Shown here in pieces: positions 9,197 to 60,598 of a stretch of DNA of 64,000 bases. The notes beneath the pieces were generated by a model, which made no database searches, was not told the origin of the DNA, and saw nothing but the letters and a program-made list of their open reading frames with translations. Position 1 is the stretch's first letter; every line of letters begins with the position of its first letter. Source of the DNA: Gemmatimonadales bacterium (GTDB lineage: Bacteria > Gemmatimonadota > Gemmatimonadetes > Gemmatimonadales > GWC2-71-9); the NCBI GenBank assembly GCA_035601235.1, contig DATNOR010000076.1, forward strand, positions 29,275 to 93,274. Direction: 5' to 3'. The position numbers were made by a program, and so were the translations under genes.

Positions 9197-9791
9197 CTTC
9201 GCGCCCGCGATCGGACGGGGCGCCGACCGCGCGATCCGCCCGCTGCTGCGGCTGTGTCACGAGACACTCGGTCTGTCGCCCGCGCAGGTGACGTGGGCCG
9301 CGTTCGGGGCGAGCGCGGCAGCCGGCGTGGCGCTCGCGGCCGGACGCCTCGGCGTGGGGCTGGCCCTCATGGCGCTGGGACAGGTTGTGGACGGGATCGA
9401 CGGCGGGATCGCGCGGGCGTACGGCCTCGCGTCGGCTGCCGGGCGGCGGCTCGACACGCAGCTCGACCGCGCCTCCGAGGCGGCGATCTTCGCGGGGCTC
9501 GCCGCGGCCGGCCTGGTCTCGTGGCGGCTGGTGCTGCTCGCGCTCGCCGCGATCCTGCTGATGACCAGTATCGCCGATCGCTCGAAGCTCGACCCCGGGG
9601 TGAAGCGGTTCGCGCTCTACTTCGGAGTGTGGCTGCCGTACCCGCTCATTTTCAGCGTGATCTTCCTGGTCAATCTGACGGCGTACGTGGTCGGGCTGCT
9701 GATCATCGACTGTCGGTTTCAGCGGAAGATGGACGCCCTCGGTGGGGACCTCGACACGGTCGCCTCGCGCGCGGCGGCCCTCTCCGGCTAG
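9189..9791 (+). CDS. CDP-alcohol phosphatidyltransferase family protein (short form, 200 aa)
   Basis: GTG 9189 with an 8-nt overlap. Full signature [31 protein letters not shown] (D-x2-DG-x2-AR-x8-G-x3-D-x3-D). Confidence 0.85.
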
Positions 9792-14023: not shown

Positions 14024-14148
14024 GGGGCCCCCAGGGCGGTGATGGGAAAATGCAGCCTACATGCTAGTGGCGGTGGCCTAAAACCGCAAGGGCACGAGAG
14101 ATGCGACGCGTCAGCACGCCCTCCCCTCGGAACGTAAGTTGAAGGGCG

Positions 14149-20416: not shown

Positions 20417-20719
20417 GTGCGGCCCAGCGACTGGCTCCCCCTGCTCGGCGACATCGCCGATCGCGCCGACGAGATCGCCCTTACATTCTTCGGCACGAAG
20501 CGGCTGCGCGTTGAGCAAAAGCCCGACGCGAGCCCGGTCACCGAAGCCGACCGGGCGGACGTCGCCGCGCTCCACATGATCGTGGAGGAGGCAGGCGGCC
20601 GCGCCACCGGGTTGGGTGGTGAGCGCTCGATCTACACCGGGAGCCTCGTGACCTCGAACGGCGCGCTGCACGAGGCGATGCTGGACACGCTGTCCCGCGC
20701 CACGGAGGCAGTCGCATGA
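20417..20719 (+). pseudogene. In-frame internal-deletion remnant of an inositol-monophosphatase/HisN-family gene (100 aa)
   Basis: The N-terminal 45 aa (LGDIADRADEIALTFFGTKRLRVEQKPDASPVTEADR) look like the IMPase N-terminus. They are joined directly to an IMPase C-terminus (DVAALHMIVEEAGGRATGLGG...LVTSNGALHEAML). The central section of about 160 aa, which carries the metal/substrate motifs (DPIDGT etc.), is missing. Confidence 0.5.
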
Positions 20720-21171
20720 TCGGTCCACGCCACTGGGGCGCTCTGGCGCTCGCCGCGACCGTGATCGGCGTCGCGGGCCTCGCCGTCGCGGCGCCGTCGC
20801 CCGGACCGGAAGTCGTTGTGTACAAGAGCCCGAGCTGCGGCTGCTGCAAGAAGTGGGTGGAGCACGTGCAGGCCGCGGGATTCCGGGTGACGGTGCACGA
20901 TACGTCGAGCCTCGCCGGCGTGATGGAGCGCTACGGGGTGCCGCGCAAGCTGACCGCGTGCCACACGGCCATCGTGGACGGCTACGTTGTCGAAGGGCAC
21001 GTTCCCGCCGACGTGATCCAACGCCTGCTCAAGGAGCGGCCCGGGATTGCGGGAGTGGCCGTTCCGGGCATGCCGGCCGGGTCGCCGGGGATGGAATCGG
21101 ACGCGCCGGCCAAGTATTACATCCTGACCTTCGACAAGAACGGTACGACCTCGGTGTTCGGCTCGCGGTGA
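20716..21171 (+). CDS. DUF411 (CopG-like) periplasmic metal-binding protein
   Basis: ATG 20716 overlaps the previous stop (ATGA). Signal/TM segment. Contains the SCGCCKKW cysteine motif, CHTAIVDGYVVEGHVP and MPAGSPGME. Confidence 0.8.
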   Translation: MIGPRHWGALALAATVIGVAGLAVAAPSPGPEVVVYKSPSCGCCKKWVEHVQAAGFRVTVHDTSSLAGVMERYGVPRKLTACHTAIVDGYVVEGHVPADVIQRLLKERPGIAGVAVPGMPAGSPGMESDAPAKYYILTFDKNGTTSVFGSR

Positions 21172-43805: not shown

Positions 43806-45097
43806 AGCTCCACACCAAGATCTTCGTTGGCCTGCTGGCCGGCGGGCTGTCCGGCCTCGCGGTCAACTGGGCGGCGAGCGGGGCGCCCTGGGTGAAGTGG
43901 GTCGACACGAACATCGCTGGCCCGCTGGGCCAGATCTTCCTGCGGCTCTTGCTGATGACCGTCGTGCCCCTCGTCTTCACGTCCATCACGCTCGGCGTGG
44001 CGCAACTCGGGGACATCCGTAGGGTCGGTCGCATTGGAGTGCGGTCGCTTGGCTACTTCTTTCTGTCGACGCTCATCTCCGCCGTGATCGGCATCGTGCT
44101 TGTCAATCTGGTACGCCCCGGCGTCGGTGTCCCCCTGGAGGTGCGCCAACAGCTGCTCGACGCCTATCGCGGGCAGGTCGCCGGTACCAGCGGCGGGGGC
44201 GCCCCCGGCTTTGGAGTCGATTTCTTCGTGAAAATCGTGCCGGCGAACCCGATCCAAGCGGCGGCGAATCTCGACATGCTCGGGATCATCTTCTTCGCGT
44301 TGGTCTTCGGCGCGGCGCTGACGCTGATCCCCGAAGAGAGAGCGCGGCCGCTGGTCCGGGTGCTCGACGCCGTCGGCGACGCGATCGCGAAGATCATCGG
44401 CCTGGCGATGCACCTCGCACCAGTCGGCGTGTTCGGGTTGATCTTCGTCGTCACGTCGCTCCTGGGATGGGACATCGTGCGAAAGTTGCTCAGCTACGTC
44501 CTCGTGGTGCTCACCGGATTGCTGATCCACGGTGCCGTGAGCCTGTCGTTGCTGGTCCGCTTTCTGGGGGGGCTAAACCCGCTCGTCTTCTGGCGTCGGA
44601 TAACGCCGAGCATCATCACGGCGTTCACGACCAGCTCGAGTAATGCGACGCTCCCGACGAACATCGCCGTTGCCGAGGAGGAGCTGAAGATCCCGCCCAA
44701 GATCGCGGGTTTCGTGTTGTCCCTTGGCTCCACCATGTGCCACAACGGGACGGCCTTGTATGAGGGCGTCACCGTGCTGTTTCTCGCGCAGTTGTTCGGT
44801 GTGAACCTCACGCTGGGCCAACAGGTAATCGCGATCGTGCTGAGCGTCATGACGGCGGCGGGCACGGCCGGCGTGCCAGGCGGCTCTCTGGCGCCCCTGA
44901 TGATCGTGTGTGTGGCGGTCGGCATCCCGCCCGAGGTGGTCGGAGTGGTCTACGGCGTCGAGCGCATCCTCGACATGAGCCGGACCACGCTCAACGTGTG
45001 TGGCGACCTCACCGCGGCCGTGTACGTCGCGAGAACGGAGAGCGACTGGGATCCCCGGGCCGTCACGGGTGACGTGGGGTTGGCGCCGGCGGCCTAG
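43802..45097 (+). CDS. Dicarboxylate/amino acid:cation symporter (DAACS family)
   Basis: GTG 43802 overlaps the previous stop (GTGA). Contains TSSSNATLP and CGDLTAAVYVA. Confidence 0.9.
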   Translation: MKLHTKIFVGLLAGGLSGLAVNWAASGAPWVKWVDTNIAGPLGQIFLRLLLMTVVPLVFTSITLGVAQLGDIRRVGRIGVRSLGYFFLSTLISAVIGIVLVNLVRPGVGVPLEVRQQLLDAYRGQVAGTSGGGAPGFGVDFFVKIVPANPIQAAANLDMLGIIFFALVFGAALTLIPEERARPLVRVLDAVGDAIAKIIGLAMHLAPVGVFGLIFVVTSLLGWDIVRKLLSYVLVVLTGLLIHGAVSLSLLVRFLGGLNPLVFWRRITPSIITAFTTSSSNATLPTNIAVAEEELKIPPKIAGFVLSLGSTMCHNGTALYEGVTVLFLAQLFGVNLTLGQQVIAIVLSVMTAAGTAGVPGGSLAPLMIVCVAVGIPPEVVGVVYGVERILDMSRTTLNVCGDLTAAVYVARTESDWDPRAVTGDVGLAPAA

Positions 45098-45124
45098 TAG
45101 GGGCGGGGCATGCTGCGCCCCTAC
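45097..45124. repeat. REP-like palindrome copy 2, GTAGGGGCGGGGCATGCTGCGCCCCTAC; bidirectional terminator candidate
   Basis: Differs from the 39356-39383 core at 2 positions. Its ends include the last base (G, 45097) of the TAG stop of the + gene (45095-45097) and the whole TAG stop of the convergent - gene (45121-45123). Confidence 0.65.
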
Positions 45125-46035
45125 ACGAGTTCAGCCGCGAGCTTCAGGGCCCCGATCGCCGCATCGATCCGCTCGGGCACGAGTCGCGCCCGCTTGAAGT
45201 CGGCGGCGAGCCGATCGCGGAACGCGGCGGTGAGCGGAGACTGCGGCAGCAGCAGGCCGCCAGTGATCGCGACGGGGACGGGGCTCGTCGCGGGGAAATG
45301 GCGCCCCAGCATCACGACCAGCTGCACGAGCTCACGCGCTGCTTCGTCCACGGCCCGCTGCGCGACCACTTCGCCCTCCCGGGCGGCGTTGAGCACATGC
45401 GGCGCGAGCGCCGCCACCTGGGCCGGCGTCGCCGTCGCCGTCCAACGCACCAGGTCGTCGAACTGTTGCAGGCCGAGGGCCGCAAGCAGCCGCGCCAGCA
45501 GGGTCGAGCCCTCGCCCCGGCCGTCATGTGCTCTCCCCGCCAGGTCGAGCGCGCGGCGACCGAGCCAGTAGCCGCCGCCTTCATCGCCGAGCTGCCACCC
45601 GTACCCGCCCGCGCGGTGAATCTCCCCGTCCGGCACGCGCGCGTACGCAATCGAGCCGGTGCCGGCGTTTACGAGCACGCCGGGGCCGCGCGCGAATGCC
45701 GTAGTCAGGGCCACCTCGCCATCGGCGAGCACCCGCACCCGGCGCGCGACGCCGGCGTCCACCAGCGCCGCTTCGAGCTCCGCCTGCTCCTGCCGCCGCC
45801 CGGCGCCGGCCGCGCCGACCACGGCCGCGTCGCCCGGGAGCGCGACGCCGGCCTGGGCCGCCGCCCGGCGGGCGGTCTCCACCAGCACCGCAGCGGATCG
45901 GGCCGCTCCCGCCGGCCGCATGGCCGCACCCGGCCCGTCCGCGCGGCCGAGGATCTGCGCCGGCGACCCGAGGACGACGGTGGTATGGGAGCCACCGGCG
46001 TCGGCACCGAGAAAGACGGCGGACGGCGGAGTCAC
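45121..46035 (-). CDS. BadF/BadG/BcrA/BcrD-type ATPase, N-acetylglucosamine-kinase-like
   Basis: GTG 46035 overlaps the upstream symporter stop (GTGA). Contains FLGADAGGSHT, VNAGTGSIAY and WQLGDEGGGYWLG. Confidence 0.8.
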   Translation of the reverse strand: MTPPSAVFLGADAGGSHTTVVLGSPAQILGRADGPGAAMRPAGAARSAAVLVETARRAAAQAGVALPGDAAVVGAAGAGRRQEQAELEAALVDAGVARRVRVLADGEVALTTAFARGPGVLVNAGTGSIAYARVPDGEIHRAGGYGWQLGDEGGGYWLGRRALDLAGRAHDGRGEGSTLLARLLAALGLQQFDDLVRWTATATPAQVAALAPHVLNAAREGEVVAQRAVDEAARELVQLVVMLGRHFPATSPVPVAITGGLLLPQSPLTAAFRDRLAADFKRARLVPERIDAAIGALKLAAELV

Positions 46036-47465
46036 GCGGGGAGTGTACGCTGTCCGACGAGCGACGAAACCATGCCTACCAGCACCGTCACCGCCGTCCC
46101 CAGCGGCACGTACCACGGCCAGGCGAGCCCCGGCAGCAGGCGCCACGGCACGCCGAGCACGACGGGGGTCATGACGAGCACGCTCGCGATGATCGCCACG
46201 ATGACGTCGCGCTGGCGCGCCCGCGGCCACCATCCGCCCAGCAGATAGGTGCCGAGCAGGGCGCCGTAGGTGATCGACGCGACGCTCAGGGCGAGCTGCA
46301 CGACGGGCGTGTTCTGATTGCGGAACGCCATCGCGCCCGCGACCAGCACCCCCGTCCACAGCAGGGTGAGCCAGCGGCCCACCCACAGCAGGTGTATCGG
46401 CTCCTGGCGCCGCGCGAGCGGCGCGTAGAAATCGTGCGTGGACGCCGAGGCGAGTGAGTTGACGGCCGACGCGTGGCTGCTCATGGCCGCGGCCAGAATG
46501 CCCGCGACGACGAGCCCCGCAAGCCCGGCCGGGAGCCGCGTGATCACGAAGCTCGGGTAGATGGCGTCACTCCGGCCGCCCTGATCCGCGCCCGCGAGCC
46601 ACAGGCTCGTGCCCACGAGCAGGAACAGCGCGAACTGGACGATGATGAACGCGCCCGATCCGATGAGGGCGCGCTGTGCGTCCTTGAGCCCGCGTGCGGC
46701 GAGCAGACGCTGCACGATCAAATGGTCGGTGCCGTGCGAGGCGCCGGCGAGCAGTGCTCCGCCCAGGACTCCGCCCCAGAACGTGTACAGCACCTTGAAC
46801 GAAGGTGTGAAGTCCAGTGTCACGAGCTTTCCGGCATCCCAGGCGCGGGCGAATGCACCGGCGCCTCCCGCGAGCCGGGTCGCGACGACGAGCGTCGCCA
46901 CACCGCCCAGCAGATACACGCCCAGCTGGATCACGTCCACCCACACGACGGCCCGCAGCCCGCCCACCCACGTGTAAATCACGGTGACGAGGCCGATGGC
47001 CAGGATGCCGGCCGGCAGGCTCCAGTGCGTGATGATCGCGAGCGGGATGGCCGTGGCGAAGATCCGCACGCAGTCGGCGAGCGCGCGCGTGAGCAGAAAC
47101 ACGCCCGACGCGGCGCGTCGCGCTCCGGGGCCGAAGCGGTGCTCCAGCCGCTGATAGGCGGTGTCCTGGGTGCCTTCGAAATAGCCGGGGAGTAGCAGCG
47201 CGGCGACCCCGATCCGCCCCGCGAGGTAGCCGAACGCGAGTTGCAGGAAGGTGAGATCGCCGCGGGCCGCGATGCCGGGGATCGAGATCACCGTGAGAGC
47301 CGACGTTTCGGTGGCCACGATGGACAGCATGATGGCCCACCAGGGGAGCCCGCGGTGGCCGAGGAAATAATCGCTCGCGTCGCGCTGGCGCCCCGACAGC
47401 ACCAGGCCGAAGACGACGACGGCGGCGCAGTAGGCCGCGATGACGGCTACGTCGAGCGGGCGCAC
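46032..47465 (-). CDS. Sodium:solute symporter (SSS) family transporter
   Basis: GTG 47465. Contains SDYFLGHRGLPWWAIMLSIVATETSALT. About 13 TM segments. Confidence 0.85.
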   Translation of the reverse strand: MRPLDVAVIAAYCAAVVVFGLVLSGRQRDASDYFLGHRGLPWWAIMLSIVATETSALTVISIPGIAARGDLTFLQLAFGYLAGRIGVAALLLPGYFEGTQDTAYQRLEHRFGPGARRAASGVFLLTRALADCVRIFATAIPLAIITHWSLPAGILAIGLVTVIYTWVGGLRAVVWVDVIQLGVYLLGGVATLVVATRLAGGAGAFARAWDAGKLVTLDFTPSFKVLYTFWGGVLGGALLAGASHGTDHLIVQRLLAARGLKDAQRALIGSGAFIIVQFALFLLVGTSLWLAGADQGGRSDAIYPSFVITRLPAGLAGLVVAGILAAAMSSHASAVNSLASASTHDFYAPLARRQEPIHLLWVGRWLTLLWTGVLVAGAMAFRNQNTPVVQLALSVASITYGALLGTYLLGGWWPRARQRDVIVAIIASVLVMTPVVLGVPWRLLPGLAWPWYVPLGTAVTVLVGMVSSLVGQRTLPA

Positions 47466-47480
47466 CGGCGCGGAGGAGCA

Positions 47481-47507
47481 ACAAAAAGCCCGCGCCGTGC
47501 GCGGGCT
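47481..47507 (-). terminator. Rho-independent terminator of the iscA/erpA-like gene
   Basis: On the minus strand, a 9-bp stem AGCCCGCGC/GCGCGGGCT (47487-47495 / 47499-47507, 3-nt loop) is followed by TTTTTGTTG. Confidence 0.65.
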
Positions 47508-47538
47508 CGGACATCCGATGGGAGGAGGGGCAACCGCC

Positions 47539-47898
47539 TCAGACCGTGAAAGACGATCCGCAGCCGCAGCCGCCGGTGGCGTTCGGGTTTTCGAAGGCGA
47601 ACCCGGACTCCTGGAAGTTGCTCTTGTAGTCCAGGGTCACGCCGTTCAGGTGCTGCGCGCTGAACCCGTCGACGAAGCAGCGCACGCCGGCGCTCTCGAT
47701 GACGATGTCGTCATCGGCGGGCTTGTCCTCGATGCTGAGGCTGTACTTGAAGCCCGAGCACCCGCCCGGCAGCACGCCGATGCGCAGCCCGGCGGTCTCG
47801 GGGGACACCTTCTCCTCCGCCATGAACTTGCGCACCTCGACCGCCGCCTTGTCGGTCAGGGTCAGGGTGATGGGAGCCGAACGTTGCGTCGTCGCCAT
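47539..47898 (-). CDS. Iron-sulfur cluster insertion/assembly protein (HesB/IscA/ErpA family)
   Basis: ATG 47898 behind GGAGG. Contains GGCSGFKY and the C-terminal GGCGCGSSF. Confidence 0.9.
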   Translation of the reverse strand: MATTQRSAPITLTLTDKAAVEVRKFMAEEKVSPETAGLRIGVLPGGCSGFKYSLSIEDKPADDDIVIESAGVRCFVDGFSAQHLNGVTLDYKSNFQESGFAFENPNATGGCGCGSSFTV

Positions 47899-47976
47899 TG
47901 CGATCCTCCAGTCACATGCGAAGTTAGAAAGTCCCGACGGCCCTGTCAACTCTCGCTCCGCGAGGCCCGCGCGCTC

Positions 47977-49758
47977 ATGCGACTTACGCTCGCCGATTGG
48001 TTGGTCGTCGCCCTGTATTTCCTGTTCAACATCGCGGTCGGCCTCTACTACAAGCGGCGGGCCGGCAAGAGCACCGCGGAATACTTTCTTTCCGGCCGCA
48101 ATGTTCCGTGGTGGCTCGCCGGCACGTCGATGGTCGCCACGACGTTCGCCGCCGACACCCCGCTCGTCGTCACCGGCTTCGTGGCGCGCAACGGCATCGC
48201 GGGCAACTGGCTGTGGTGGAACCTGCTCGCGAGCGGCATGCTCACCGTGTTCTTCTACGCCCGGCTGTGGCGTCGCGCCGGTGTGATGACCGACATCGAG
48301 TTTTCGGAGATCCGCTACAGCGGTCCACCGGCCGCGTTCTTACGCGGGTTCCGAGCGGTCTACCTGGGTCTGCTCATCAACTGCATCATCCTCGGCTGGG
48401 TGAACCTCGCGATGGCGAAGATTCTCGGGCTGGTGTTCGGCATCTCGAAGGGGCAGGCCTTGTGGATCGTGGTCGGGATGATCCTGCTCACCTCCGCGAT
48501 CTCGACGCTGTCGGGGCTATGGGGCGTGCTCGTGACCGACCTGTTTCAGTTCATTATCAAGATGGGGATGGTGATCGTGCTGGCGGTGTTCGCTGTGAAC
48601 GCCGTGGGCGGCATCGAGGCGATGCGGGTCAAGCTGGCGGCAATCGATCAAGTGCGCGGCGCCACCGCCGGCGGCCAGGGATCGGTGCTCGATTTCGTGC
48701 CCGACCTCGGCTCGGCGTGGATGCCGATGATCACGTTCTTCGTCTACATCGGCGTGAACTGGTGGGCCACGTCGTACCCCGGGGCCGAGCCCGGCGGCGG
48801 CGGCTACGTCGCGCAACGGATGTTGAGCGCGAAGGACGAGAAGCATTCCCTGCTCGCCACCCTGTGGTTCAACATCGCGCACTATGCCGTGCGGCCCTGG
48901 CCCTGGATCCTGGTGGCGCTCGCCTCGCTGATCTTGTTCCCCAACCTCAAGGACCCGGAGACGGGCTACGTGCGGGTGATGATCGACTACCTGCCCTCGT
49001 CGCTCCGCGGCCTCATGGTCGCCGCGTTCGCGGCGGCTTTCATGTCGACGATCGCGACGCAGCTCAACTGGGGCGCGAGCTACCTCGTGAACGATTGCTA
49101 TCGACGCTTCCTGCGCCGGCAGGATAGCGAGGCGCACTACGTCCTGGCGTCGCGAGTTGTGACGGGCCTGCTCACCGTGGTCTCGGCCGCGGTCGCGTTC
49201 CGCATCGAGTCGATCGGCGGTGCCTGGAAACTGCTGATCATCACCGGGGCTGGAACCGGGGCGGTGCTGCTGCTGCGCTGGTACTGGTGGCGGATCAATG
49301 CCTGGAGTGAAATCTCGGCGATGATCGCCGCGTTCGTTGTGTCGGTCCTGTTGCAGACCGTGTGGGGGCTCGACAGCGATCGGCCCCTCGACTTCGCGCA
49401 CATCGTGCTCATCACGGTCGCCGTCACGACCGCGGTGTGGCTCGCGGTCACCTTCCTGACGCGCCCCGAGTCCGACGCGACCCTCGTCGCGTTCTACCGC
49501 CGCACCCGGCCGTCGCGCACGGGGTGGGGGCCCGTCGCCGCGCGGGCGCCCGACGTGCAGCCGTCGCGCGACGGGCTCGCCAATCTGCTGGACTGGGTAG
49601 CCGGGTGCGTGCTGGTGTACGGCGCACTGTTCGGCGTCGGCAAGCTGCTGTTGCACGACACGGTGCCGGGCCTGCTGCTGCTCGCGCTCAGCGGCGTCGC
49701 GGGCGCCGTCATCTACCGCGACTTGTCACGCCGCGGGTGGAGTACGGTCGTAGAGTGA
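47977..49758 (+). CDS. Sodium:solute symporter (SSS) family transporter, 593 aa
   Basis: ATG 47977 (the track ORF starts far upstream at 47440). Contains AEYFLSGRNVPWWLAGTSMVATTFAADTP. Confidence 0.85.
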   Translation: MRLTLADWLVVALYFLFNIAVGLYYKRRAGKSTAEYFLSGRNVPWWLAGTSMVATTFAADTPLVVTGFVARNGIAGNWLWWNLLASGMLTVFFYARLWRRAGVMTDIEFSEIRYSGPPAAFLRGFRAVYLGLLINCIILGWVNLAMAKILGLVFGISKGQALWIVVGMILLTSAISTLSGLWGVLVTDLFQFIIKMGMVIVLAVFAVNAVGGIEAMRVKLAAIDQVRGATAGGQGSVLDFVPDLGSAWMPMITFFVYIGVNWWATSYPGAEPGGGGYVAQRMLSAKDEKHSLLATLWFNIAHYAVRPWPWILVALASLILFPNLKDPETGYVRVMIDYLPSSLRGLMVAAFAAAFMSTIATQLNWGASYLVNDCYRRFLRRQDSEAHYVLASRVVTGLLTVVSAAVAFRIESIGGAWKLLIITGAGTGAVLLLRWYWWRINAWSEISAMIAAFVVSVLLQTVWGLDSDRPLDFAHIVLITVAVTTAVWLAVTFLTRPESDATLVAFYRRTRPSRTGWGPVAARAPDVQPSRDGLANLLDWVAGCVLVYGALFGVGKLLLHDTVPGLLLLALSGVAGAVIYRDLSRRGWSTVVE

Positions 49759-49767
49759 GCGCGCCGG

Positions 49768-50976
49768 CTACAGCTCGGGGTGGGTGAGCGCGTCGGCCAC
49801 GAGGTCCGCCACCTGCGACCGGACGTGGAGGATCGCAACGTTGGCGCGCGTGGGATTGACGCGGTTCGTGAGCAGGATGATGAACAGATCGCGCTCGGGG
49901 TCCATCCAGATCGACGTTCCCGTGAAGCCGGTATGCCCGAACGCGCGGCGCGACAGCTTGGTCCCGGCGCTCGAGTATCCGGAGTCGGAGGGTGTGTCCC
50001 AGCCGAGGGCACGCGTCGAGCCCGCCGGGAGGTTCTGACGCGCGGTGAACTCCGCGACGGTCTCGGCGCGGATCAGCTGCAGCGTGTCCCAGGCGCCGCC
50101 GTTCAACAGCATTGCCGCGAAGCGCGACAGATCGAGGGCGTTCGAGAACAGCCCGGCGTTCCCCGACACGCCGCCCAGGCGCGCCGCACTCTCGTCGTGC
50201 ACCTCTCCCACGAGCAGGCGATGGCGGAACACGGTGTCGTTCTCGGTGGGCGCGATACGGTCCCGCCACGCCGCTGGGGGCAGGAACCGGGTCGCGGGCA
50301 TGCCCAGCGGTCCGAACACGCGCCTGGCGAGGAAACGGTCCAGCGCCTCACCGGTGATCCGCTCGACTGCCTGCATCAGGACGATGGCGCTCAAGTCGGA
50401 GTAGCGGTACGTCACGCCGGGTGGGGAGAGCAGGGTGGTCGTATCCACGGCGTGGAGCGCCGCGGCGCGCGTGGCCGTCGAGTCGTAGAGCGGCAAGTCC
50501 GCGGCCAGGCCGGCGGAATGGGTGAGCAGGTGGCGGATCGTGACGCGGTCCTTCATGGGCCCGGTGAACTCGGGCACATAGCGCTGTACCGGCGCATCGA
50601 GCGCGAGCTTTCCTTCGTCCACCAGCAGCATGCACGCGGTGGTCAGCGCGACGACCTTGGTGAGCGAGGCGAGGTCGTAGATCGTGCCCGCCTGTGCGGG
50701 GCGGTGGTCGCTCACGGCGTAGAACCCCACGGGTGCGAGCAGCGCCAGACGGCCGTGTCGTCCGACCGCCAGGACGGCGCCCGGAAACGCGCCGCTGTCG
50801 ACTTCGGCCCGGAGGTAGGCGAGCACGCCCGCCAGGCGCGTGCTGTCGAAGCCGAGGGATGCGGGTGCGGCGGCCGGGATAGCGGCGCTCACCGGCGGGG
50901 GCGGTGCCGCCGCGCCGCGGCAGGCGCCGGCGAGCCCTCCGACCCAGACGACCGCCAGCGCGGCCCGCGCCGTCAC
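49768..50976 (-). CDS. Beta-lactamase-family serine hydrolase lipoprotein (AmiE/AmpH-like)
   Basis: GTG 50976 overlaps the nagZ-like stop (GTGA). Signal MTARAALAVVWVGGLAGAC. SxxK motif in DLASLTKVV. Contains HLLTHSAGL and GHTGFTGTS. Confidence 0.85.
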   Translation of the reverse strand: MTARAALAVVWVGGLAGACRGAAAPPPPVSAAIPAAAPASLGFDSTRLAGVLAYLRAEVDSGAFPGAVLAVGRHGRLALLAPVGFYAVSDHRPAQAGTIYDLASLTKVVALTTACMLLVDEGKLALDAPVQRYVPEFTGPMKDRVTIRHLLTHSAGLAADLPLYDSTATRAAALHAVDTTTLLSPPGVTYRYSDLSAIVLMQAVERITGEALDRFLARRVFGPLGMPATRFLPPAAWRDRIAPTENDTVFRHRLLVGEVHDESAARLGGVSGNAGLFSNALDLSRFAAMLLNGGAWDTLQLIRAETVAEFTARQNLPAGSTRALGWDTPSDSGYSSAGTKLSRRAFGHTGFTGTSIWMDPERDLFIILLTNRVNPTRANVAILHVRSQVADLVADALTHPEL

Positions 50977-52727
50977 GGCTGTGAGTCGGGAATCACGACC
51001 CCCCAGCCGAGCGGATAGGCCGGCGGGATCCGGATCGGGAGGTGTCCGGTGATCGGAACCTTCCCGAGCACGGCGAGCGCCGCGGCACGCTCCGACGCCC
51101 GCACGCCGCTCCATGCCACGAGATACGACTTCACCGTGGGCGCCTGGCCCAACAAATACGGGCTGCCGAGCGAGACGAGGACGGTAGGGCGGGCGGAATC
51201 GGTGGCGGTGATCAGGGCGGCGAGCGAGTCGGGGAGAGCGATGGTGCCGCGGCCGGACAGCGGGCGCACGTTGGCGGCGAACACCGTCGCCGGTGCCCGC
51301 GCGATCACGGCGCGCGCGGAGTCGTACGAGAGCGTGCCCGACATCGGCCACAGGCGGAAATACTCGACCGTGTCGCCGCCCTGGCGCAGCAGCTGAGCCA
51401 TGGTCTGCCCCACGCCCCCGTTGTTCTCGTCGGCGTAGGCGATCAACGCGAGGCGGCCGCGGTGGGCGCGCAGCGCGTGCAGCCGTCCGCCCATATCGCG
51501 CACCAGGGCCAGGGCGCGCACCGCGAGGTCGTTCGCCTGGTCCTGGAAACGCCGGGCGCCGACCACGAGCATGATCGAATCGAGCGACACCGTGCGCGCC
51601 TGGAACAGCCCGATCCGACGCTTGATCTCGAGCACGCGGCGCACCGATTGCTCGAGTCGCTGCGGGGTGATTCGACCGGTCGCCACGGCCGTCGTCATCG
51701 CGGCGATCGCGGAATCGGGGTCGGCCGGCATCAACAGCAGGTCGGAGCCCGCGAGAAACGCGCGCACGGTGGCCTCCCCGGCGCCATACTTCGCCACGAT
51801 GGCGCCCATCGTCAGCGCGTCGGTCACCACCAGGCCCGGAAAACGCAGTGAGTCGCGCAGCAAGCCGGTGAGCACGGCGGCCGAGAGGGTACCCGGCTCG
51901 TCCGAGCCCGTGAAGGCGGGGAAGGCGATGTGGGCGCTCATCACCACGTCCGCCCCGGCGGCGATCCCAGCGCGGAACGGCACGAGCTCGATCGAGTCGA
52001 GCCGCGCGTACCCCGACGGAATTAACGGGAGACCGATGTGCGAGTCGATCTGGGTGTCGCCGTGACCGGGAAAATGCTTGAGGGTGGCGAGCATGCCGTG
52101 GTCGTGCAGGCCGCGCACGTATTCGGTCACGAGCCGCGACACGGTGCGCGGGTCCTCCCCGAACGAGCGGATGTTGATGATCGGGTTGGCGGGATTGTTG
52201 TTGACATCCGCGTCGGGCGCGAAATTGACGTGGATGCCGACCGCGCGGCCTTCGGCGGCCGCGGCGGCCCCGATGGTATAGGCGTCCCGGGGGTCGCCGG
52301 TGGCTCCGACGGCCATGATCTGTGGGAATGCCGTGGCGCCCACCACCCGCATCGCGGCGCCCCATTCGAGGTCCGCCGAGACGAGCAGGGGCAGGCGGGA
52401 GCGCCGCTGCAGGGCGTTCAGCTTGGCCGCGATGTCGAACGGCGACCCGACGGAGATGATCAGGCCGCCCACCTCGAGGGAGTCGACCCAGCGCGCCGCG
52501 ACTTGGAAAAGCGAATCGTCCAGCGCGGTGTAGCTTCCCAGGAGCCAGGGAACGACGAGCTGGCCCACGCGCTGCCGGACCGTGAGCGCGGCGAAGATGG
52601 AGTCGGCGGAGACCGACGTCGAGGGCCGGGGGCCGGGGGCGGGGGCGGGGGCGGGGATCGGCCTCGCCGCGTGTCCGCTGGCACAGCCGAGCACCGCCGT
52701 CACGATCAGGAGTCTATGCGCCCGCAT
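50973..52727 (-). CDS. nagZ: Glycoside hydrolase family 3 beta-N-acetylhexosaminidase-like lipoprotein
   Basis: ATG 52727. Lipobox AVLGCASG. Contains VSADLEWG and KHFPGHGDTQIDSH, with an additional C-terminal domain. Confidence 0.85.
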   Translation of the reverse strand: MRAHRLLIVTAVLGCASGHAARPIPAPAPAPGPRPSTSVSADSIFAALTVRQRVGQLVVPWLLGSYTALDDSLFQVAARWVDSLEVGGLIISVGSPFDIAAKLNALQRRSRLPLLVSADLEWGAAMRVVGATAFPQIMAVGATGDPRDAYTIGAAAAAEGRAVGIHVNFAPDADVNNNPANPIINIRSFGEDPRTVSRLVTEYVRGLHDHGMLATLKHFPGHGDTQIDSHIGLPLIPSGYARLDSIELVPFRAGIAAGADVVMSAHIAFPAFTGSDEPGTLSAAVLTGLLRDSLRFPGLVVTDALTMGAIVAKYGAGEATVRAFLAGSDLLLMPADPDSAIAAMTTAVATGRITPQRLEQSVRRVLEIKRRIGLFQARTVSLDSIMLVVGARRFQDQANDLAVRALALVRDMGGRLHALRAHRGRLALIAYADENNGGVGQTMAQLLRQGGDTVEYFRLWPMSGTLSYDSARAVIARAPATVFAANVRPLSGRGTIALPDSLAALITATDSARPTVLVSLGSPYLLGQAPTVKSYLVAWSGVRASERAAALAVLGKVPITGHLPIRIPPAYPLGWGVVIPDSQP

Positions 52728-53942
52728 TCTCTCTCGCTGTTGCTGGGGCTGGTGTGCGCCGCACCCGCGGCCGCGCAGGTGCGGCCGGGGATCGAGGTGC
52801 TGCTCTCGGATTCGATCGGGCTCGTGGCCGGCAAGCGCGTCGCGCTGCTCACGAACCAAACCGGGGTGAACCGCCTGGGTCAGCGCGACATCGATCTCGT
52901 GCGCGGTACCCCAGGCGTGCGCCTGCTCGTGATCCTCAGTCCGGAGCACGGGTTGCGCGGAACCGAGGACCGTCCGGGGCTCCCCGACGCGGTCGACTCC
53001 GCTTCCGGACTACCAATCTACAGCCTCTACGGCGGGACGCCCCTGTCCGCGATCGCGGGTCTCGATAGCGTGGACGTCGTGCTGGTGGACCTGCAGGACA
53101 TCGGCGCCCGCTACTACAGCTATCCCACGACGGCCGTCCTGCTGCTGCAGGAGGCCGCGCGCCGCGCCAAGCCGCTGGTGGTGCTCGACCGGCCCAACCC
53201 CGTCGGCGGCGTCGCGGTGCAGGGAAACGTACCGGCGACGGCGCGTACGGTCGAGCGCATCGGGGACTTCCTGCCGGTTCCGATGCGCCACGGGATGACG
53301 ATGGGCGAGGTGGCGCGACTCGCGAACGAGGTGTACGGCATCCATGCCCGGCTCGCGGTGGTGCCGGCCGCGGGGTGGCGGCGCGCGATGTATTACGACG
53401 ACACCGGCCTGCCGTGGGTGCGCCCGTCGCCCAACATGCCGGACCTGGAAAGCGCCCTGCACTATCCCGGGACCTGCCTGTTCGAGGGCACCAATCTCTC
53501 GGTGGGACGCGGCACGCCGCTCGCGTTCAAGGTGATCGGCGCGCCCTGGCTCGATACCGGCGCGGTGTTACCGCGGCTGCGCGGCGCCGGCAGGTGGGCC
53601 CAGGAAGGATTGAACGGCGTGGAGGTGTCGGGGGTCGTGTTCACGCCGAGGGCGCCGACCGACGGGAAGTACGACGGGGTGGAGCTGCGCGGCATCCGGC
53701 TGCGCGTCACCGACCGGCGGCGCTACGATCCGACGCGCGCCGCGGTGCTGGTCCTCACGGCGATCGAGGCGGCGCACCGCGACTCGCTGCGCTTCGACGC
53801 GGCGCGCTTCGACCGGTTGGCCGAGGGTGGTGAGCTGCGTCGGGCGATCCTCAGCGCCCGCGCCGCGGACGCCGTGTGGCGCAGCTGGGAGCCGGCGCTC
53901 GCGCGGTTTCGCCGGCTGCGCGCCAAGTACTTGCTCTATTGA
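52716..53942 (+). CDS. DUF1343 protein (exo-beta-N-acetylmuramidase NamZ-like)
   Basis: ATG 52716 behind AGGAG. Signal MRPHSLSLLLGLVCAAPAAAQ. Contains GKRVALLTNQTGV, SPEHGLRG and DLQDIGARYYSY. Confidence 0.8.
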   Translation: MRPHSLSLLLGLVCAAPAAAQVRPGIEVLLSDSIGLVAGKRVALLTNQTGVNRLGQRDIDLVRGTPGVRLLVILSPEHGLRGTEDRPGLPDAVDSASGLPIYSLYGGTPLSAIAGLDSVDVVLVDLQDIGARYYSYPTTAVLLLQEAARRAKPLVVLDRPNPVGGVAVQGNVPATARTVERIGDFLPVPMRHGMTMGEVARLANEVYGIHARLAVVPAAGWRRAMYYDDTGLPWVRPSPNMPDLESALHYPGTCLFEGTNLSVGRGTPLAFKVIGAPWLDTGAVLPRLRGAGRWAQEGLNGVEVSGVVFTPRAPTDGKYDGVELRGIRLRVTDRRRYDPTRAAVLVLTAIEAAHRDSLRFDAARFDRLAEGGELRRAILSARAADAVWRSWEPALARFRRLRAKYLLY

Positions 53943-53975
53943 GACTCCGTCCCCCTCCCGCTACTTTCCCCGGCC

Positions 53976-54674
53976 ATGATCGTGATCCCGCAGAAGGTGC
54001 GTGACGGCTTTGGAAACCTGCTCGATCCGCTCGCCCTGCGACTGATTCGCCTGCACGTTCGGCCCAACTTCATCACCACCATCGGCACGCTGGTGATCGT
54101 CGCATCGGCGGTCGCGTTCGCGCTCGGCCGGGCACGCTGGGGCGGGCTGTTGCTCCTCTTATCCGGTCTGTGCGACATGGTGGACGGCCGCGTGGCCCGG
54201 CGCGGGGGTATGGTCACGACCTTCGGCGCGTTCTTCGACTCGACGCTCGACCGGCTCGGCGAAGCGGCGCTGTTCTCAGGCATCGCGATCTATTTCCTGC
54301 GCGGCGGCGTCGCCCCCGCGCGCGTCACCCTGGCGGTCGCCGCGTGCCTCGTCGCCCTGACGGCGTCGCTGCTCGTGTCGTACACGCGGGCCCGAGCCGA
54401 AGGGCTGGGCCTGAGCGTCAAGGTGGGCATCGCGCAGCGCGCCGAGCGCGTGCTGCTGCTCGGCGCTCCGACCCTGTTTTTCGGCGCCGGGAACCGCGGC
54501 GCGTTGTTGTTCTGGATCGTCGTGGTGCTGGCGCTCGCGACCGCCGTGACCGTGGTGCAGCGCGTGCTGTACGTGGCGCGCGTGGCCCGCGAGCCGGCCA
54601 TGCCGCGGCCGCCGCGTGTCCGGGAGACGCTGCCGGGGCACGCGCCCGCGCTGCAAACTCGGAAAGGACCGTAA
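53976..54674 (+). CDS. CDP-alcohol phosphatidyltransferase (phosphatidylinositol-phosphate-synthase-like by context)
   Basis: Signature CDMVDGRVARRGGMVTTFGAFFDSTLDRLGE. Its stop lies 2 nt before the inositol-3-phosphate synthase start. Confidence 0.85.
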   Translation: MIVIPQKVRDGFGNLLDPLALRLIRLHVRPNFITTIGTLVIVASAVAFALGRARWGGLLLLLSGLCDMVDGRVARRGGMVTTFGAFFDSTLDRLGEAALFSGIAIYFLRGGVAPARVTLAVAACLVALTASLLVSYTRARAEGLGLSVKVGIAQRAERVLLLGAPTLFFGAGNRGALLFWIVVVLALATAVTVVQRVLYVARVAREPAMPRPPRVRETLPGHAPALQTRKGP

Positions 54675-54676
54675 TC

Positions 54677-56005
54677 GTGGCACAGCCGTCCGGCCGGGAG
54701 ATCGCGCCCGCCAGAGGAAAGCTCGGCGTCATGCTGGTGGGGCTCGGGGCCGTCTCGACGACGTTCGTGGCGGGCGTCGAGAACGTGCGCCGCGGAACGG
54801 GCATCCCGATCGGATCGCTGTCGCAGATGGGAACCATCCGGCTCGGGAAGCGCACCGAGAAGCGGAGTCCCAAGATCAAGGACTTCGTGCCCCTGGCCGA
54901 TCTGAAGGACCTGGTCTTCACGGCCTGGGACCCGATTCCGGACGACGCCTACGCTGCGGCGGTGAAGGCGGGCGTGCTGGACCGGCACGAGCATCTGGAG
55001 CCCATCAAAGACTTCCTCCAGGGGATCAAGCCGCTGCCGGCCGCCTTCGACCAGCATTACGTCAAACGGCTGCACGGCACCAACGTGAAGACCGGCAAGA
55101 ACAAGCGCGATCTCGCCGAGCAGCTGCGACAGGACATCCGCGATTTCAAGAAGCGCTCGGGGGCCGACCGCCTGGTGATGATCTGGGCGGCCTCGACCGA
55201 GGTGTTTCTCACCATCGGGCCGGCGCACCAGAGCCTGCAGGCGTTCGAGCAGGCGATGGAGCAGAGCGATCCCGCCATCGCGCCCTCGATGCTCTACGCG
55301 TACGCCGCGCTGATGGAGAACGTGCCGTTCGCCAACGGCGCCCCCAATCTCACCGTCGACGTTCCCGCGCTCCAGCGCCTGGCGGAGGAGCGCAGGCTCC
55401 CGATCGGCGGCAAGGACTTCAAGACCGGGCAGACGATGATGAAGACCGTGCTGGCGCCCGCGTTCAAGGCGCGCATGCTGGGCCTGGCCGGCTGGTATTC
55501 CACCAACATCCTGGGCAACCGCGACGGCGAGGTGCTGGACGACCCCGAGTCGTTCAAGACCAAGGAGGAGTCAAAGCTCGGAGTGCTCGAATACATCCTC
55601 CAGCCCGACCAGTATCCCGAGCTGTACGGCAACGTGTTTCACAAGGTGCGAATCAACTATTATCCGCCGCGGGGGGACAACAAAGAAGGCTGGGACAACA
55701 TCGACATCTTCGGGTGGCTCGGCTACCCGATGCAGATCAAGGTCGATTTCCTGTGCCGCGATTCGATCCTCGCAGCCCCCATCGTCCTCGACCTCGCGCT
55801 GTTCTTCGATCTGGCGCAGCGGGCGCGTCTCTCGGGCATCCAGGAGTGGCTGTCGTTCTACTTCAAGAGTCCCCAGACCGCGCCTGGGCTGTACCCCGAG
55901 CACGATCTGTTCATCCAGCAGACCAAACTGAAGAACACCCTCCGTTGGCTCATGGGCGAGGAACAGATCACCCACCTCGGCATCGAATACTACGAGAAGG
56001 CGTGA
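54677..56005 (+). CDS. ino1: myo-Inositol-3-phosphate synthase
   Basis: GTG 54677 behind GGAAAGGA. Contains KLGVMLVGLGAVSTTFVAG, NGAPNLTVD and LSFYFKSPQ. 442 aa. Confidence 0.85.
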   Translation: MAQPSGREIAPARGKLGVMLVGLGAVSTTFVAGVENVRRGTGIPIGSLSQMGTIRLGKRTEKRSPKIKDFVPLADLKDLVFTAWDPIPDDAYAAAVKAGVLDRHEHLEPIKDFLQGIKPLPAAFDQHYVKRLHGTNVKTGKNKRDLAEQLRQDIRDFKKRSGADRLVMIWAASTEVFLTIGPAHQSLQAFEQAMEQSDPAIAPSMLYAYAALMENVPFANGAPNLTVDVPALQRLAEERRLPIGGKDFKTGQTMMKTVLAPAFKARMLGLAGWYSTNILGNRDGEVLDDPESFKTKEESKLGVLEYILQPDQYPELYGNVFHKVRINYYPPRGDNKEGWDNIDIFGWLGYPMQIKVDFLCRDSILAAPIVLDLALFFDLAQRARLSGIQEWLSFYFKSPQTAPGLYPEHDLFIQQTKLKNTLRWLMGEEQITHLGIEYYEKA

Positions 56006-56419
56006 GCGCCGCGCAGTACGCTGTCACGGCCGCCGGGGTCGCCGCCATCGTCTGGGTCCTGTGGTACTTCCTGCGCTCCAAGGGGTCGGCCGTGCCCGCC
56101 GCCACCAAGGACGGCGTGCAGGAGGTGCGGATCACGGTCAAGGGCGGCTATACGCCGGACACGGTCGTGGTCCAGGCGGGGAAGCCGGTGCGCCTGCAGT
56201 TCTACCGCGACGAGACCGCGGACTGCTCGGAGCGGATCGTGCTCGAAGACTTCGGAATCGACGCTGCCCTGCCCGCGTTTCAGACGACCGATATCGAGTT
56301 CACGCCGGCTGAGCCGGGGGAATTCCGGTTCCGCTGTGGTATGAACATGCTGAAGGGTCTGCTGGTGGTCGAGCCGGCGACGGCGGAGCGTCGGCCCGCG
56401 GCGTCACCCCACACGCTCC

Positions 56420-56427
<8 letters not shown>
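56002..56427 (+). CDS. Membrane-anchored cupredoxin-like domain protein
   Basis: GTG 56002 overlaps the ino1 stop (GTGA). One TM helix, then [26 protein letters not shown]...[18 protein letters not shown]. This type is commonly found next to copper ATPases. Confidence 0.65.
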
Positions 56428-58965
<2,538 letters not shown>

Positions 58966-58969
<4 letters not shown>

Positions 58970-59256
58970 GATACTTCCACCGAACGAGCCTGAGCCCCGA
59001 TGATGCGCTCGCGCAGGCCAAGGTGTTTTTCGGCGGCCGCCTGGCGCCGGCCGACGAGGGCGCCCGGCGGCGCAGCTACGCCGGCGCGCTGGGCCGTATC
59101 ACGGTCGCGGCCCGGCCCGAGGGCGGACACTATACGCTGGTGCAGGTCACGACTGATCAGGTGGGCGAATCGGAGCTCGACCGTCTCGCCAAGCGCTTTC
59201 TCGCGGAGCTGCACAAACAGGTCGAGCCGGGCCACGACCTGCGGGGCGCGTACTAA
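58966..59256 (+). CDS. Hypothetical protein (96 aa) coupled to copA
   Basis: ATG 58966 overlaps the copA stop (ATGA). Codon usage is GC3-rich. No motif recognised. Confidence 0.5.
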
Positions 59257-59468
59257 CCCGCCACGCGTGCGCGGTAGCCGGCCCGCTCGATAGCCGCGAT
59301 CAGCTGGTCGGTGGTCGCGGCGTCGTCGTCGAAGTCGACCTCGGCCTCCCCGGCCTGGAGATCCACGATGGCGGAATACACGCCGCCCGCGTGCTTGAGC
59401 GCCTGCTCGACTTTCGCCTGACAATGCCCGCACGTCATACCGCTCACGCGCAGTTTCAACGTCGCCAT
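59253..59468 (-). CDS. copZ: Heavy-metal-associated copper chaperone
   Basis: ATG 59468 behind GGAGGAGG (the track ORF starts at 59495). MATLKLRVSGMTCGHCQAKVEQAL carries the MxCxxC motif. Confidence 0.85.
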   Translation of the reverse strand: MATLKLRVSGMTCGHCQAKVEQALKHAGGVYSAIVDLQAGEAEVDFDDDAATTDQLIAAIERAGYRARVAG

Positions 59469-59530
59469 ATGGCCTCCTCCATGACCCCGGGGCATGGCCC
59501 CGGAGTTGGCCGCCCACTACAATTTACCTC

Positions 59531-60598
59531 ATGGCCTCCCGCGCCGCTCCGACCACGCACTCACGGCCCCCCTCCGCCACCGCCCCCGGCGGTCTCACGC
59601 GCGTCCAGCTGCTCGAGATCTATCGGTACCTGCGACTCACGCGCACCCTGGAGGAGCGGCTCGTAGCCCTGTACCGGCAGAGCAAGGTCATCGGAGGCCT
59701 GTTCCGTTCGCTCGGCCAGGAGGGGGAGTCCGTCGCGTCGGCGTATGCCCTCGACCGGGGCGGTAATCGGGATATCCTCTCCCCCCTCATCCGTAACCTG
59801 GGCTCGATGCTGGTGATGGGCGCGCAACCGATCCAGATCTTGCGCCAGTACATGGCCAAGGCCGAAGGCCCGACGCACGGGCGCGAACTGAACGTCCATT
59901 TCAACGACCTCGAGCGGGGCTATCTGGGCCAGATTTCCCACCTGGGCGACATGGTTCCCGTCATGGCGGGCATCGCCTTGACCTTCAAGCTGCGCGGGGA
60001 ACGGCGGGTGGGGCTGGTCTACATCGGGGATGGGGCGACCTCCACGGGGACCTTCCACGAGGGCCTGAACTTCGCGGCCGTGCTGCGGGTGCCCCTGGTG
60101 GTGATCGCGGAATACAACCGCTGGGCGTACTCGACGCCCCCCGAGAAACAATTCGCGGTCAAGGACCTGGCCGAGAAGGCGAAGGCTTACGGCGTCCCGG
60201 GGGTGACGGTGGATGGGAACGACGTGCTGGCGGTGTACGAGGCGACCAGGTTCGCGGTTGAGCGGGCGCGCGATGGCCACGGCGTGCACGTCATCGAGGT
60301 GAAAACGTACCGTCGCAAGGGCCACGCCGAGCACGACGACCAGCACTACGTCCCCAAGGATGAGCTCGACTGGTGGGCGAAGGAGAACGATCCGGTCGAC
60401 CGTTATGTGAAGCGGCTGCTGCAGAGCGAATGGGTCGAGGAGCGCGAGCTGCAGGCGATCGACCAGCAGACGAAGGCGGAGATCGACCAGGCGACGGACG
60501 CATGCGTCGATGAGCCCCTGCCGCCCGGCGACTCGGCCCTGGAGGGCGTGTACGCCAATCCGGCGGTCCTGACGGCACACTGGTATCGGAGCCTGTGA
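59531..60598 (+). CDS. 2-oxoacid dehydrogenase E1 component alpha subunit (TPP-dependent; PDH/BCKDH type)
   Basis: TPP motif YIGDGATSTGTFHEGLNFAAVLRVPLVVIAEYN. No SD before ATG 59531. Confidence 0.9.
   Translation: MASRAAPTTHSRPPSATAPGGLTRVQLLEIYRYLRLTRTLEERLVALYRQSKVIGGLFRSLGQEGESVASAYALDRGGNRDILSPLIRNLGSMLVMGAQPIQILRQYMAKAEGPTHGRELNVHFNDLERGYLGQISHLGDMVPVMAGIALTFKLRGERRVGLVYIGDGATSTGTFHEGLNFAAVLRVPLVVIAEYNRWAYSTPPEKQFAVKDLAEKAKAYGVPGVTVDGNDVLAVYEATRFAVERARDGHGVHVIEVKTYRRKGHAEHDDQHYVPKDELDWWAKENDPVDRYVKRLLQSEWVEERELQAIDQQTKAEIDQATDACVDEPLPPGDSALEGVYANPAVLTAHWYRSL

Follow-up and report, generated by a model that had tools for sequence, protein, structure and literature searches.

A phosphatidylinositol gene pair joined to a copper-export module in Gemmatimonadales, probably by gene-order history

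Why should a gene for making inositol phosphate overlap a gene for exporting copper? This arrangement occurs in a Gemmatimonadales bacterium (assembly GCA_035601235.1, contig DATNOR010000076.1), within a 64,000-nucleotide stretch (positions 29,275 to 93,274 of the forward strand, ~70% G+C; hereafter the window, whose own coordinates are used throughout), where a CDP-alcohol phosphatidyltransferase gene of the phosphatidylinositol phosphate synthase (PIPS) type and a myo-inositol-3-phosphate synthase (MIPS) gene run directly into cupA, copA and a small gene that we call orf96. We consider it probable that positions 53939-59256 form one five-gene unit in which a phylum-wide phosphatidylinositol (PI) module and a copper module have been joined by the history of gene order, without a functional link. 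Under this proposal, MIPS would make 1L-myo-inositol-1-phosphate, the transferase would join it to CDP-diacylglycerol to give phosphatidylinositol phosphate, some phosphatase would convert this to PI, and PI would feed the PAP2_3 protein of a sphingolipid operon ~40 kb away, yielding inositol-phosphoceramide (IPC). The copper genes cupA-copA would have come to sit behind MIPS within one Gemmatimonadales clade; in the sub-lineage of the window, where cupA abuts MIPS, transcription from the PIPS promoter would cover them, their translation would depend on coupling or re-initiation, and the lipid-copper link would reflect gene-order history in a compact genome rather than shared function.

The order of the genes was derived from codon-position GC analysis and from independent gene calls on public contigs. 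All five lie on the forward strand: the PIPS-type transferase (232 amino acids, 53976-54674), MIPS (442 amino acids, 54677-56005), a CupA-like, membrane-anchored Cu(I) chaperone of the cupredoxin fold (141 amino acids, 56002-56427), the P1B-1-type Cu(I)-exporting ATPase CopA (849 amino acids, 56420-58969) and, as the final cistron, the conserved 96-residue protein orf96 (58966-59256); the Pfam matches of the first four all exceed gathering scores. The transferase gene runs from an ATG at 53976 to a TAA at 54672-54674, and two nucleotides (tc) separate it from the MIPS GTG at 54677. The MIPS stop TGA (56003-56005) shares the letters GTGA with the cupredoxin start GTG (56002-56004), the cupredoxin TAA (56425-56427) falls inside copA, whose ATG at 56420 creates an 8-nt overlap (ATGAGTAA), and copA and orf96 (58966) share the 4 nt ATGA. 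A preliminary description of this DNA had proposed a MIPS gene paired with a PIPS-type CDP-alcohol transferase ending 2 nt ahead of it, a GTGA overlap between MIPS and the cupredoxin gene, and a further overlap of the latter with copA; reading the sequence confirms these junctions to the base, and the identity of the pair held up in profile searches, in the ranking of solved structures and in residue mapping, as set out below. Independent gene calls on six public metagenome-assembled contigs with an identical MIPS give the same lengths (232, 442, 141, 849 and 96 amino acids), the transferase start is backed by homologues of 231-232 amino acids at 100% coverage, and the MIPS start by an alignment to PDB 7NWR that begins at residue 7. 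Are such junctions telling? About half of the neighbouring genes on one strand overlap in this genome (16 of 33 such pairs in the gene tables examined), and unrelated genes do so too, as in the pairs H+-PPase/amino-acid permease and permease/SDF symporter, so that the overlaps along PIPS-MIPS-cupA-copA are not distinctive.

The identity of MIPS is clear at the family level. The protein matches PF07994 (the NAD-binding domain; 324.5 bits against a cut-off of 25, 1e-96) and PF01658 (the catalytic domain; 116.8 bits against 27, 6e-34), is 72-95% identical across Gemmatimonadota loci, and aligns over residues 7-433 of 442 with PDB 7NWR (Inositol-3-phosphate synthase, E 7e-167), which we take to be the structure of the Bacteroides BT_1526 MIPS. 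BT_1526 has been structurally characterised, and genetic work showed that Bacteroides thetaiotaomicron makes no inositol lipids without it (Heaver 2022, PMC9246714). Compared with actinobacterial and archaeal MIPS (~360-390 amino acids), the window protein is longer and Bacteroides/eukaryote-like; by homology it is predicted to turn glucose-6-phosphate into 1L-myo-inositol-1-phosphate. Its gene has a Shine-Dalgarno-like sequence, GGAAAGGA, 9 nt ahead of the GTG.

The two copper genes are equally recognisable. A CupA-type site consists of Cys...Cys-x-Met-x-Met in a cupredoxin fold, with copper-ligand identities that reportedly go back to Fu and colleagues in 2013. The window cupredoxin matches PF13473 (5e-19) and Streptococcus pneumoniae CupA (PDB 2MRY/4F2E, E 2e-23), with the Cys (ADC/SPC) and the C-G-M-N-M motif (CGMNM) aligned, and it has an N-terminal hydrophobic segment that serves as a membrane anchor. 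CopA scores 617 bits against TIGR01511 (cut-off 397), carries the Pfam domains E1-E2_ATPase, HMA and Hydrolase and the motifs CPC486, DKTGT530, GDGIND733, YN798 and MAWSS827, and begins with an HMA domain containing GMSCAAC, followed by a second HMA-like region (residues ~73-140) that has lost its CxxC. Because the cupredoxin is a CupA homologue, cupA-copA is, by these sequence matches, an already known copper-export module; in the pneumococcal cop operon, too, cupA lies directly upstream of copA. The window resembles S. pneumoniae copY-cupA-copA in that the gene for a membrane-anchored cupredoxin with Cys...C-G-M-N-M directly precedes and overlaps a gene for a Cu(I) P1B ATPase. Unlike the pneumococcal operon, it shows no CopY repressor among the genes scanned and no recognisable dedicated promoter, its CopA has HMA-type N-terminal domains in place of the cupredoxin-type domain of pneumococcal CopA (4F2F), and it encodes a separate CopZ on the opposite strand.

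This third copper gene, copZ (59253-59468, reverse strand; 71 amino acids, PF00403 at 1e-16), encodes a CopZ-type HMA copper chaperone, is convergent with orf96, and has its own leader with a Shine-Dalgarno sequence, GGAGGAGG. The leader also contains an imperfect GC-rich palindrome, ATGACCCCGGGGCAT (59481-59495), within the 62-nt divergent gap between copZ and the E1alpha gene of a 2-oxoacid dehydrogenase, and this palindrome may be the operator of a copper-sensing repressor. Among the window genes scanned, we saw no gene for a copper sensor (CueR, CsoR or CopY). Two more copper-related proteins are encoded far from this locus: a plastocyanin/azurin-type protein (640-1122) heads the block that contains the nine-gene cluster described below, a position kept in the related locus L088, and a DUF411 protein (20716-21171) lies near a superoxide dismutase and a peroxiredoxin.

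Are the lipid and copper genes read together? Upstream of the transferase gene, on the forward strand, lies a promoter-like element (53939-53967) composed of TTGAGA (53939-53944, overlapping the stop codon of the upstream NamZ gene), a 17-nt spacer and TACTTT (53962-53967), with 8 nt between it and the ATG. In 29 loci whose PIPS proteins are 58-95% identical, a TA[CG]NTT box stands at a constant distance ahead of the ATG and a C-rich tract follows it; box and tract, together with ATTGAGAC, recur in L089, which has a gene other than NamZ upstream. An operon start at NamZ was considered and rejected on the ground that the element is conserved where other genes replace NamZ; some read-through from NamZ may nevertheless occur. 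Three more window genes that stand first in their operons, those for E1alpha (59518-59523), a PAS histidine kinase (~32450) and a PAP2 protein at 14149 (~14135), likewise have a TANNNT box that begins 13-14 nt ahead of the start codon. The TANNNT-bearing first genes lack a Shine-Dalgarno sequence, and internal or leader-bearing genes have one. The element would thus fit a sigma-70-type promoter that gives a leaderless or near-leaderless mRNA, and the pattern suggests that leaderless mRNAs are widespread in this Gemmatimonadales genome.

Nothing comparable was found further along the unit. In front of cupA, copA and orf96 there is no TANNNT box, and a well-spaced Shine-Dalgarno sequence is missing as well. 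The interval 55400-56450 contains no -35/-10 pair, a search for inverted repeats near the MIPS/cupA junction returned no operator-like palindrome, and we found no terminator separating the five genes. A generic sigma-70 scan of 52400-59700 yielded no promoters, missing even the PIPS element, which emerged only from the relatives; a terminator scan of the same interval gave a single terminator-like site, within the PIPS gene, fewer than chance would give; and an Rfam search of 52000-60000 (E <= 0.1) gave nothing. The simplest reading of these signals is a single PIPS-MIPS-cupA-copA-orf96 unit whose distal cistrons would be translated by coupling, and co-transcription of the pair with the copper genes is likely on this basis. 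The physical coupling to copper genes that had been described earlier is thus real, with a conserved promoter-like element at the transferase only.

Could cupA-copA instead be driven by a promoter of their own, possibly copper-responsive, lying within the 3' portion of MIPS? In that case the overlap would be mere packing, and lipid and copper genes would be expressed separately. Copper exporters are usually metal-regulated, and intracoding promoters must exist in this genome, because the GH3 and NamZ genes upstream of the unit are divergent with start codons only ~21 nt apart; a copper-responsive promoter within MIPS is therefore possible, and a TATTAT hexamer does occur there, at 55658. This hexamer, however, stands without a -35 partner and belongs to the codons of the NYYPP motif, which is universally conserved, the interval from 55400 to 56450 holds no -35/-10 pair, the window genes scanned include no CueR, CsoR or CopY, and in sister genomes a different gene, for an H+-PPase, lies upstream of cupA with a gap of just 8-20 nt. 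We regard an independent promoter as unlikely.

The comparison with relatives shows how the two modules stand to one another. We compared 80 loci with transferase relatives from species-representative genomes, using tblastn, clustering of open reading frames, Pfam scans and a rough neighbour-joining tree. MIPS lies directly downstream of PIPS in at least 61 of the 80, including most of the Gemmatimonadota loci, those of Longimicrobiales and Kutchimonas among them, an adjacency far beyond chance. The neighbours differ by lineage. Longimicrobiales, Kutchimonas and others have Lnt-L31-PrfA-PrmC-YlbF on one side of the pair and Tmk-CtpA on the other; Gemmatimonadaceae have NamZ...PIPS-MIPS and, ~450 nt further on, orf96-E1alpha, without copper genes. 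In one Gemmatimonadales clade (4 loci), copA lies 192-1027 nt behind the pair and cupA is missing. The sister of this clade does have cupA-copA, and in 14 loci an H+-PPase gene, preceded by a Shine-Dalgarno sequence of its own and set off by small gaps, stands between MIPS and cupA (loci with a second H+-PPase paralogue at this position bear the numbers L017, L019 and L022-L035; in L024, for example, it occupies ~12070-14531). Only in the window, seven genome loci and L089 does MIPS abut cupA with a conserved GTGA/ATGA overlap. The window lineage lacks the divergent H+-PPase paralogue at the MIPS/cupA position. We considered whether the inserted gene had been relocated to 40166-42301, where the window encodes an H+-PPase, and rejected this, since the two are only ~29% identical and represent different paralogues.

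The small gene orf96, which has no match in Pfam, NCBIfam or the PDB, lies just ahead of the E1 dehydrogenase genes in the Gemmatimonadaceae loci, which have no copper genes there, and it comes right after MIPS in L037. In the window lineage it is flanked on both sides by copper genes, cupA-copA before it and copZ after it. In two loci, L075 (Actinomycetota, 2971-6707) and L087 (Chloroflexota, 2392-5470), PIPS-MIPS is accompanied by a gene for a GT4 glycosyltransferase, which recalls phosphatidylinositol-mannoside (PIM) synthesis.

The copper module behind MIPS is thus lineage-specific and variable, and the long-gap variants imply, from their layout, independent copA promoters. It is this varying position that leads us to favour a neutral gene-order history over functional coupling. 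The preliminary description had called the coupling with copA unexpected and unexplained; given a known cupA-copA module whose placement is lineage-specific, it has an ordinary explanation.

Might the two modules nevertheless be joined for a reason, with inositol lipids and copper export co-expressed because, for example, anionic PI or IPC supports the activity or insertion of CopA and CupA, or buffers copper? Copper genes do lie downstream of MIPS throughout one Gemmatimonadales clade, where three variants occur; 8 loci keep the 4-nt MIPS/cupA overlap; and neither cupA nor copA shows a promoter or Shine-Dalgarno sequence that we could recognise. But the intervening content varies (an inserted H+-PPase, a missing cupA, gaps of up to 1 kb), which implies separate promoters, and most Gemmatimonadota have PIPS-MIPS without nearby copper genes. 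The third copper gene, copZ, is on the opposite strand behind its own leader, overlapping of unrelated genes is routine in this genome, and we found no link between inositol lipids and copper export in the literature. Functional coupling is in our judgement quite unlikely. We give very little credence, too, to a more specific form of the idea, in which copper export has been deliberately slaved to the inositol-lipid promoter, making CupA and CopA constitutive and in step with PI and IPC without a dedicated sensor, with the lipids taking part in envelope copper defence.

The lipid half of our proposal depends on the transferase. This protein matches PF01066 (59 bits), its top NCBIfam model is NF045883 (PIPSynth), and it scores lower against the BT_1523-type model (125 bits, cut-off 350), the DIPPS model (47 bits) and PgsA (31 bits). 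Among solved structures it matches Renibacterium PIPS best (5D92, E 4e-33) and Mycobacterium tuberculosis PgsA1 next (6H53, 1e-20); DIPP synthase structures reach only 1e-5, and DIPP synthase and PgsA are both far weaker matches than PIPS. In an alignment of 81 sequences, the window transferase and 80 homologues, the signature D67xxD70G71xxA74R75...G84xxxD88xxxD92 and the P(D/N)xx(T/S) motif of transmembrane segment 1 (P30-N31-F-I-T34) are kept and invariant or nearly so, and the arginines of R155xxR158 and R196 are invariant in all 81. In the alignment to 6H53, R158 (in R155-A-E-R158) falls on mycobacterial R155, and R196 on R195. These two mycobacterial residues, the first within an RxxR motif, bind the phosphate of inositol phosphate, mutation cripples its use, and both are kept in all PIPS and absent from eukaryotic PI synthases (Clarke 2015, PMC4634129). 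The window pair therefore shares with actinobacterial Ino1 plus PgsA1/PIPS (PMC4634129; 6H53) the signature, P(D/N)xx(T/S), RxxR and a C-terminal Arg, in line with the best structural matches from Renibacterium and Mycobacterium; it differs from the actinobacterial PI locus in having no PIM glycosyltransferase or acyltransferase neighbours. The conserved arginines argue for an inositol-phosphate acceptor, and the ranking of models and structures, together with the lack of a cytidylyltransferase partner, points to CDP-diacylglycerol as donor, a substrate whose use by PIPS goes with a hydrophobic groove between JM1 and TM2. The predicted reaction would be CDP-diacylglycerol plus 1L-myo-inositol-1-phosphate to phosphatidylinositol phosphate plus CMP.

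Besides the intracoding promoters already mentioned, several points weigh against the reading of the locus as a PI module joined neutrally to copper genes. The score of the transferase against PIPSynth, 156.1 bits, is under the equivalog cut-off of 170, as is its score against the archaetidylinositol phosphate synthase model (145 bits, cut-off 180), and the other three models also score under their curated cut-offs; because it falls under the NCBIfam cut-off, we file the protein as a probable PIPS-family member of a separate Gemmatimonadota subgroup rather than as an equivalog. DIPP synthases have the same acceptor, and the arginines leave the donor unsettled. What we treat as the promoter of the unit is a conserved motif only. 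The persistence of the MIPS-to-copper order over a fairly broad clade could reflect selection and not just inertia. No PgpA-family protein or phosphatidylinositol phosphate phosphatase appeared among the scanned or Pfam-annotated window genes, with 16-24 kb partly sampled, and our literature search found nothing relevant on inositol lipids or ceramide synthase in Gemmatimonadota, and no lipid data.

That the transferase lacks PIPS activity altogether, being a DIPP synthase that joins CDP-inositol to inositol-1-phosphate for an osmolyte, or drawing a different donor from the NTP-transferase cluster at 2274-9791, is scarcely credible to us: the missed equivalog cut-off, the shared acceptor (through which the conserved arginines do not discriminate) and the presence of an NTP_transf_3 gene in the window speak for it, but DIPPS scores 47 bits where PIPS scores 156, its structures reach 1e-5 against 4e-33, no cytidylyltransferase is fused or adjacent, the NTP-transferase lies 50 kb off in a cluster with two CDP-alcohol transferases of its own, and di-myo-inositol phosphate (DIP) is a compound known from hyperthermophiles. 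A DIPPS identity was accordingly rejected on score and architecture. The IPCT/DIPPS enzymes of hyperthermophiles (Archaeoglobus AF0263, PDB 4MND) do belong to the same superfamily, share the inositol-1-phosphate acceptor and often have MIPS as a neighbour; the window transferase differs from them in its weak similarity (47 bits; E 1e-5), its lack of a cytidylyltransferase domain and its origin in a mesophilic, soil-type lineage.

What becomes of the PI predicted to arise from this pair? On the reverse strand the window also holds a sphingolipid operon, comprising a serine palmitoyltransferase gene (spt, 12818-14023), a gene for a 403-residue GNAT-like protein that is a candidate bacterial ceramide synthase (11709-12920), one for an epimerase-type reductase (10747-11856 as the maximal open reading frame) and, last, one for a PAP2_3 protein of ~320 amino acids (9788-10750, start approximate), all with Pfam matches; this order is kept in L088. 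The top NCBIfam model of Spt is NF047600 (537 bits, under its cut-off of 640 and well over BioF/Kbl). The PAP2_3 protein scores 69.8 bits against PF14378 (cut-off 27), has homologues of ~320 amino acids that bear generic names only, and keeps S-x-H (S236/S237/H238, SSH) and H-x-x-x-D (H277...D281, HYAVD) motifs that are invariant in 15 homologues. Compared with solved structures, both as a single sequence and as a 15-member profile, it gave no meaningful match, and an AlphaFold2 model from the 15-member alignment reached a pLDDT of only 53, a poor value. By family membership and operon context, the protein is a candidate phosphoinositol transferase acting from PI to ceramide. Its earlier designation as an Aur1-type IPC synthase agrees with the PAP2_3 family, the motifs and the ceramide-gene context, while the comparisons made link the protein to Aur1 and BT_1522 at the Pfam family level only.

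Because the window also contains this operon ending in PAP2_3, a route from MIPS through PIPS, a phosphatase and PI to PAP2_3 and IPC is plausible, the phosphatase and PAP2_3 steps both being putative. The closest precedent is the BT_1522-BT_1526 cluster of B. thetaiotaomicron, which has the same MIPS type, a PIPS-family transferase and a PAP2-superfamily enzyme with sphingolipid genes, and for which the same chemistry was proposed, from MIPS and PIPS through a phosphatase to PI and phosphoinositol ceramide; Aur1 homology was reported for BT_1522 (Heaver 2022, PMC9246714). Here, by contrast, the genes do not form one cluster, the pair being ~40 kb from the PAP2_3/spt operon; the scanned window genes include no equivalent of BT_1525, the PgpA-family phosphatidylinositol phosphate phosphatase of Bacteroides; the transferase is nearer to actinobacterial PIPS than to BT_1523 (156 against 125 bits); and a copper-export module follows directly on the pair. 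The preliminary description had the pair completing an IPC route within the window, with the phosphatase step assigned to a HAD protein (2274) or the PAP2 protein (14149). The presence of the sphingolipid operon stands, but the linkage was overstated, since the pair lies ~40 kb off with unrelated genes between and is phylum-wide; the HAD gene turns out to be the first of a separate conserved cluster, and the PAP2 protein, whose gene is conserved beside spt, is a candidate only. Since PIPS-MIPS is phylum-wide and occurs in housekeeping contexts, PI is probably the primary product of the pair, independent of sphingolipids.

An alternative for IPC, equally open on the gene content, is a CDP-inositol-type route encoded beside the sphingolipid operon. 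The nine-gene cluster in question (2274-9791, forward strand) is convergent with that operon, with a 4-nt overlap, and corresponds to 10964-18532 in L088. It encodes, in order, a HAD protein, an NTP-transferase (NTP_transf_3), a 281-residue protein without assignment, a class-III aminotransferase, a CDP-alcohol transferase, a GFO/IDH/MocA oxidoreductase with a weak inositol 2-dehydrogenase match, an LPG_synthase_TM/flippase-like protein, another protein without assignment and a second CDP-alcohol transferase. A second genome keeps the nine-gene and sphingolipid arrangement, with PIPS-MIPS-cupA-copA ~60 kb away on the same 271-kb contig. The cluster is like the 'alternative' NTP-transferase/CDP-alcohol-transferase/HAD cluster, of CDP-inositol type, proposed for Prevotella (Heaver 2022, PMC9246714), and differs from it by the added oxidoreductase and aminotransferase, which suggest a modified, perhaps amino-, cyclitol headgroup.

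The surroundings of the five-gene unit are of other kinds. Upstream, from ~45000 to 53942, lies a neighbourhood resembling peptidoglycan and N-acetylmuramic acid recycling, with a BadF/BadG-type kinase, SSF transporters, a beta-lactamase-family protein, a GH3 glycosidase (NagZ-like; ~50973-52700, reverse strand) and the NamZ-type exo-muramidase (~52716-53942, forward strand), the last two placed by codon-position GC and independent gene calls. Beyond copZ follow the E1alpha, E1beta and E2 genes of the 2-oxoacid dehydrogenase, assigned by Pfam. In the look-up for annotating 10-30 kb, a small open reading frame (20417-20719) had no exact record.

The chemistry proposed here has precedents, as have both modules; the novelty lies in the presence of the lipid pair across Gemmatimonadota and its local fusion to copper export. 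The copper coupling is above all a caution, as an overlap between genes of a compact, high-GC genome is no proof of a common function. Gemmatimonadota are abundant in soils, and to our knowledge their membrane lipids have barely been characterised. PIPS-MIPS and the complete-looking ceramide operon predict PI, and probably inositol sphingolipids, in these bacteria, kinds of lipid that formerly passed for rare among bacteria. If this is true, the pathways of Bacteroides and actinobacteria would extend to another phylum and offer a concrete target for lipid biomarkers.

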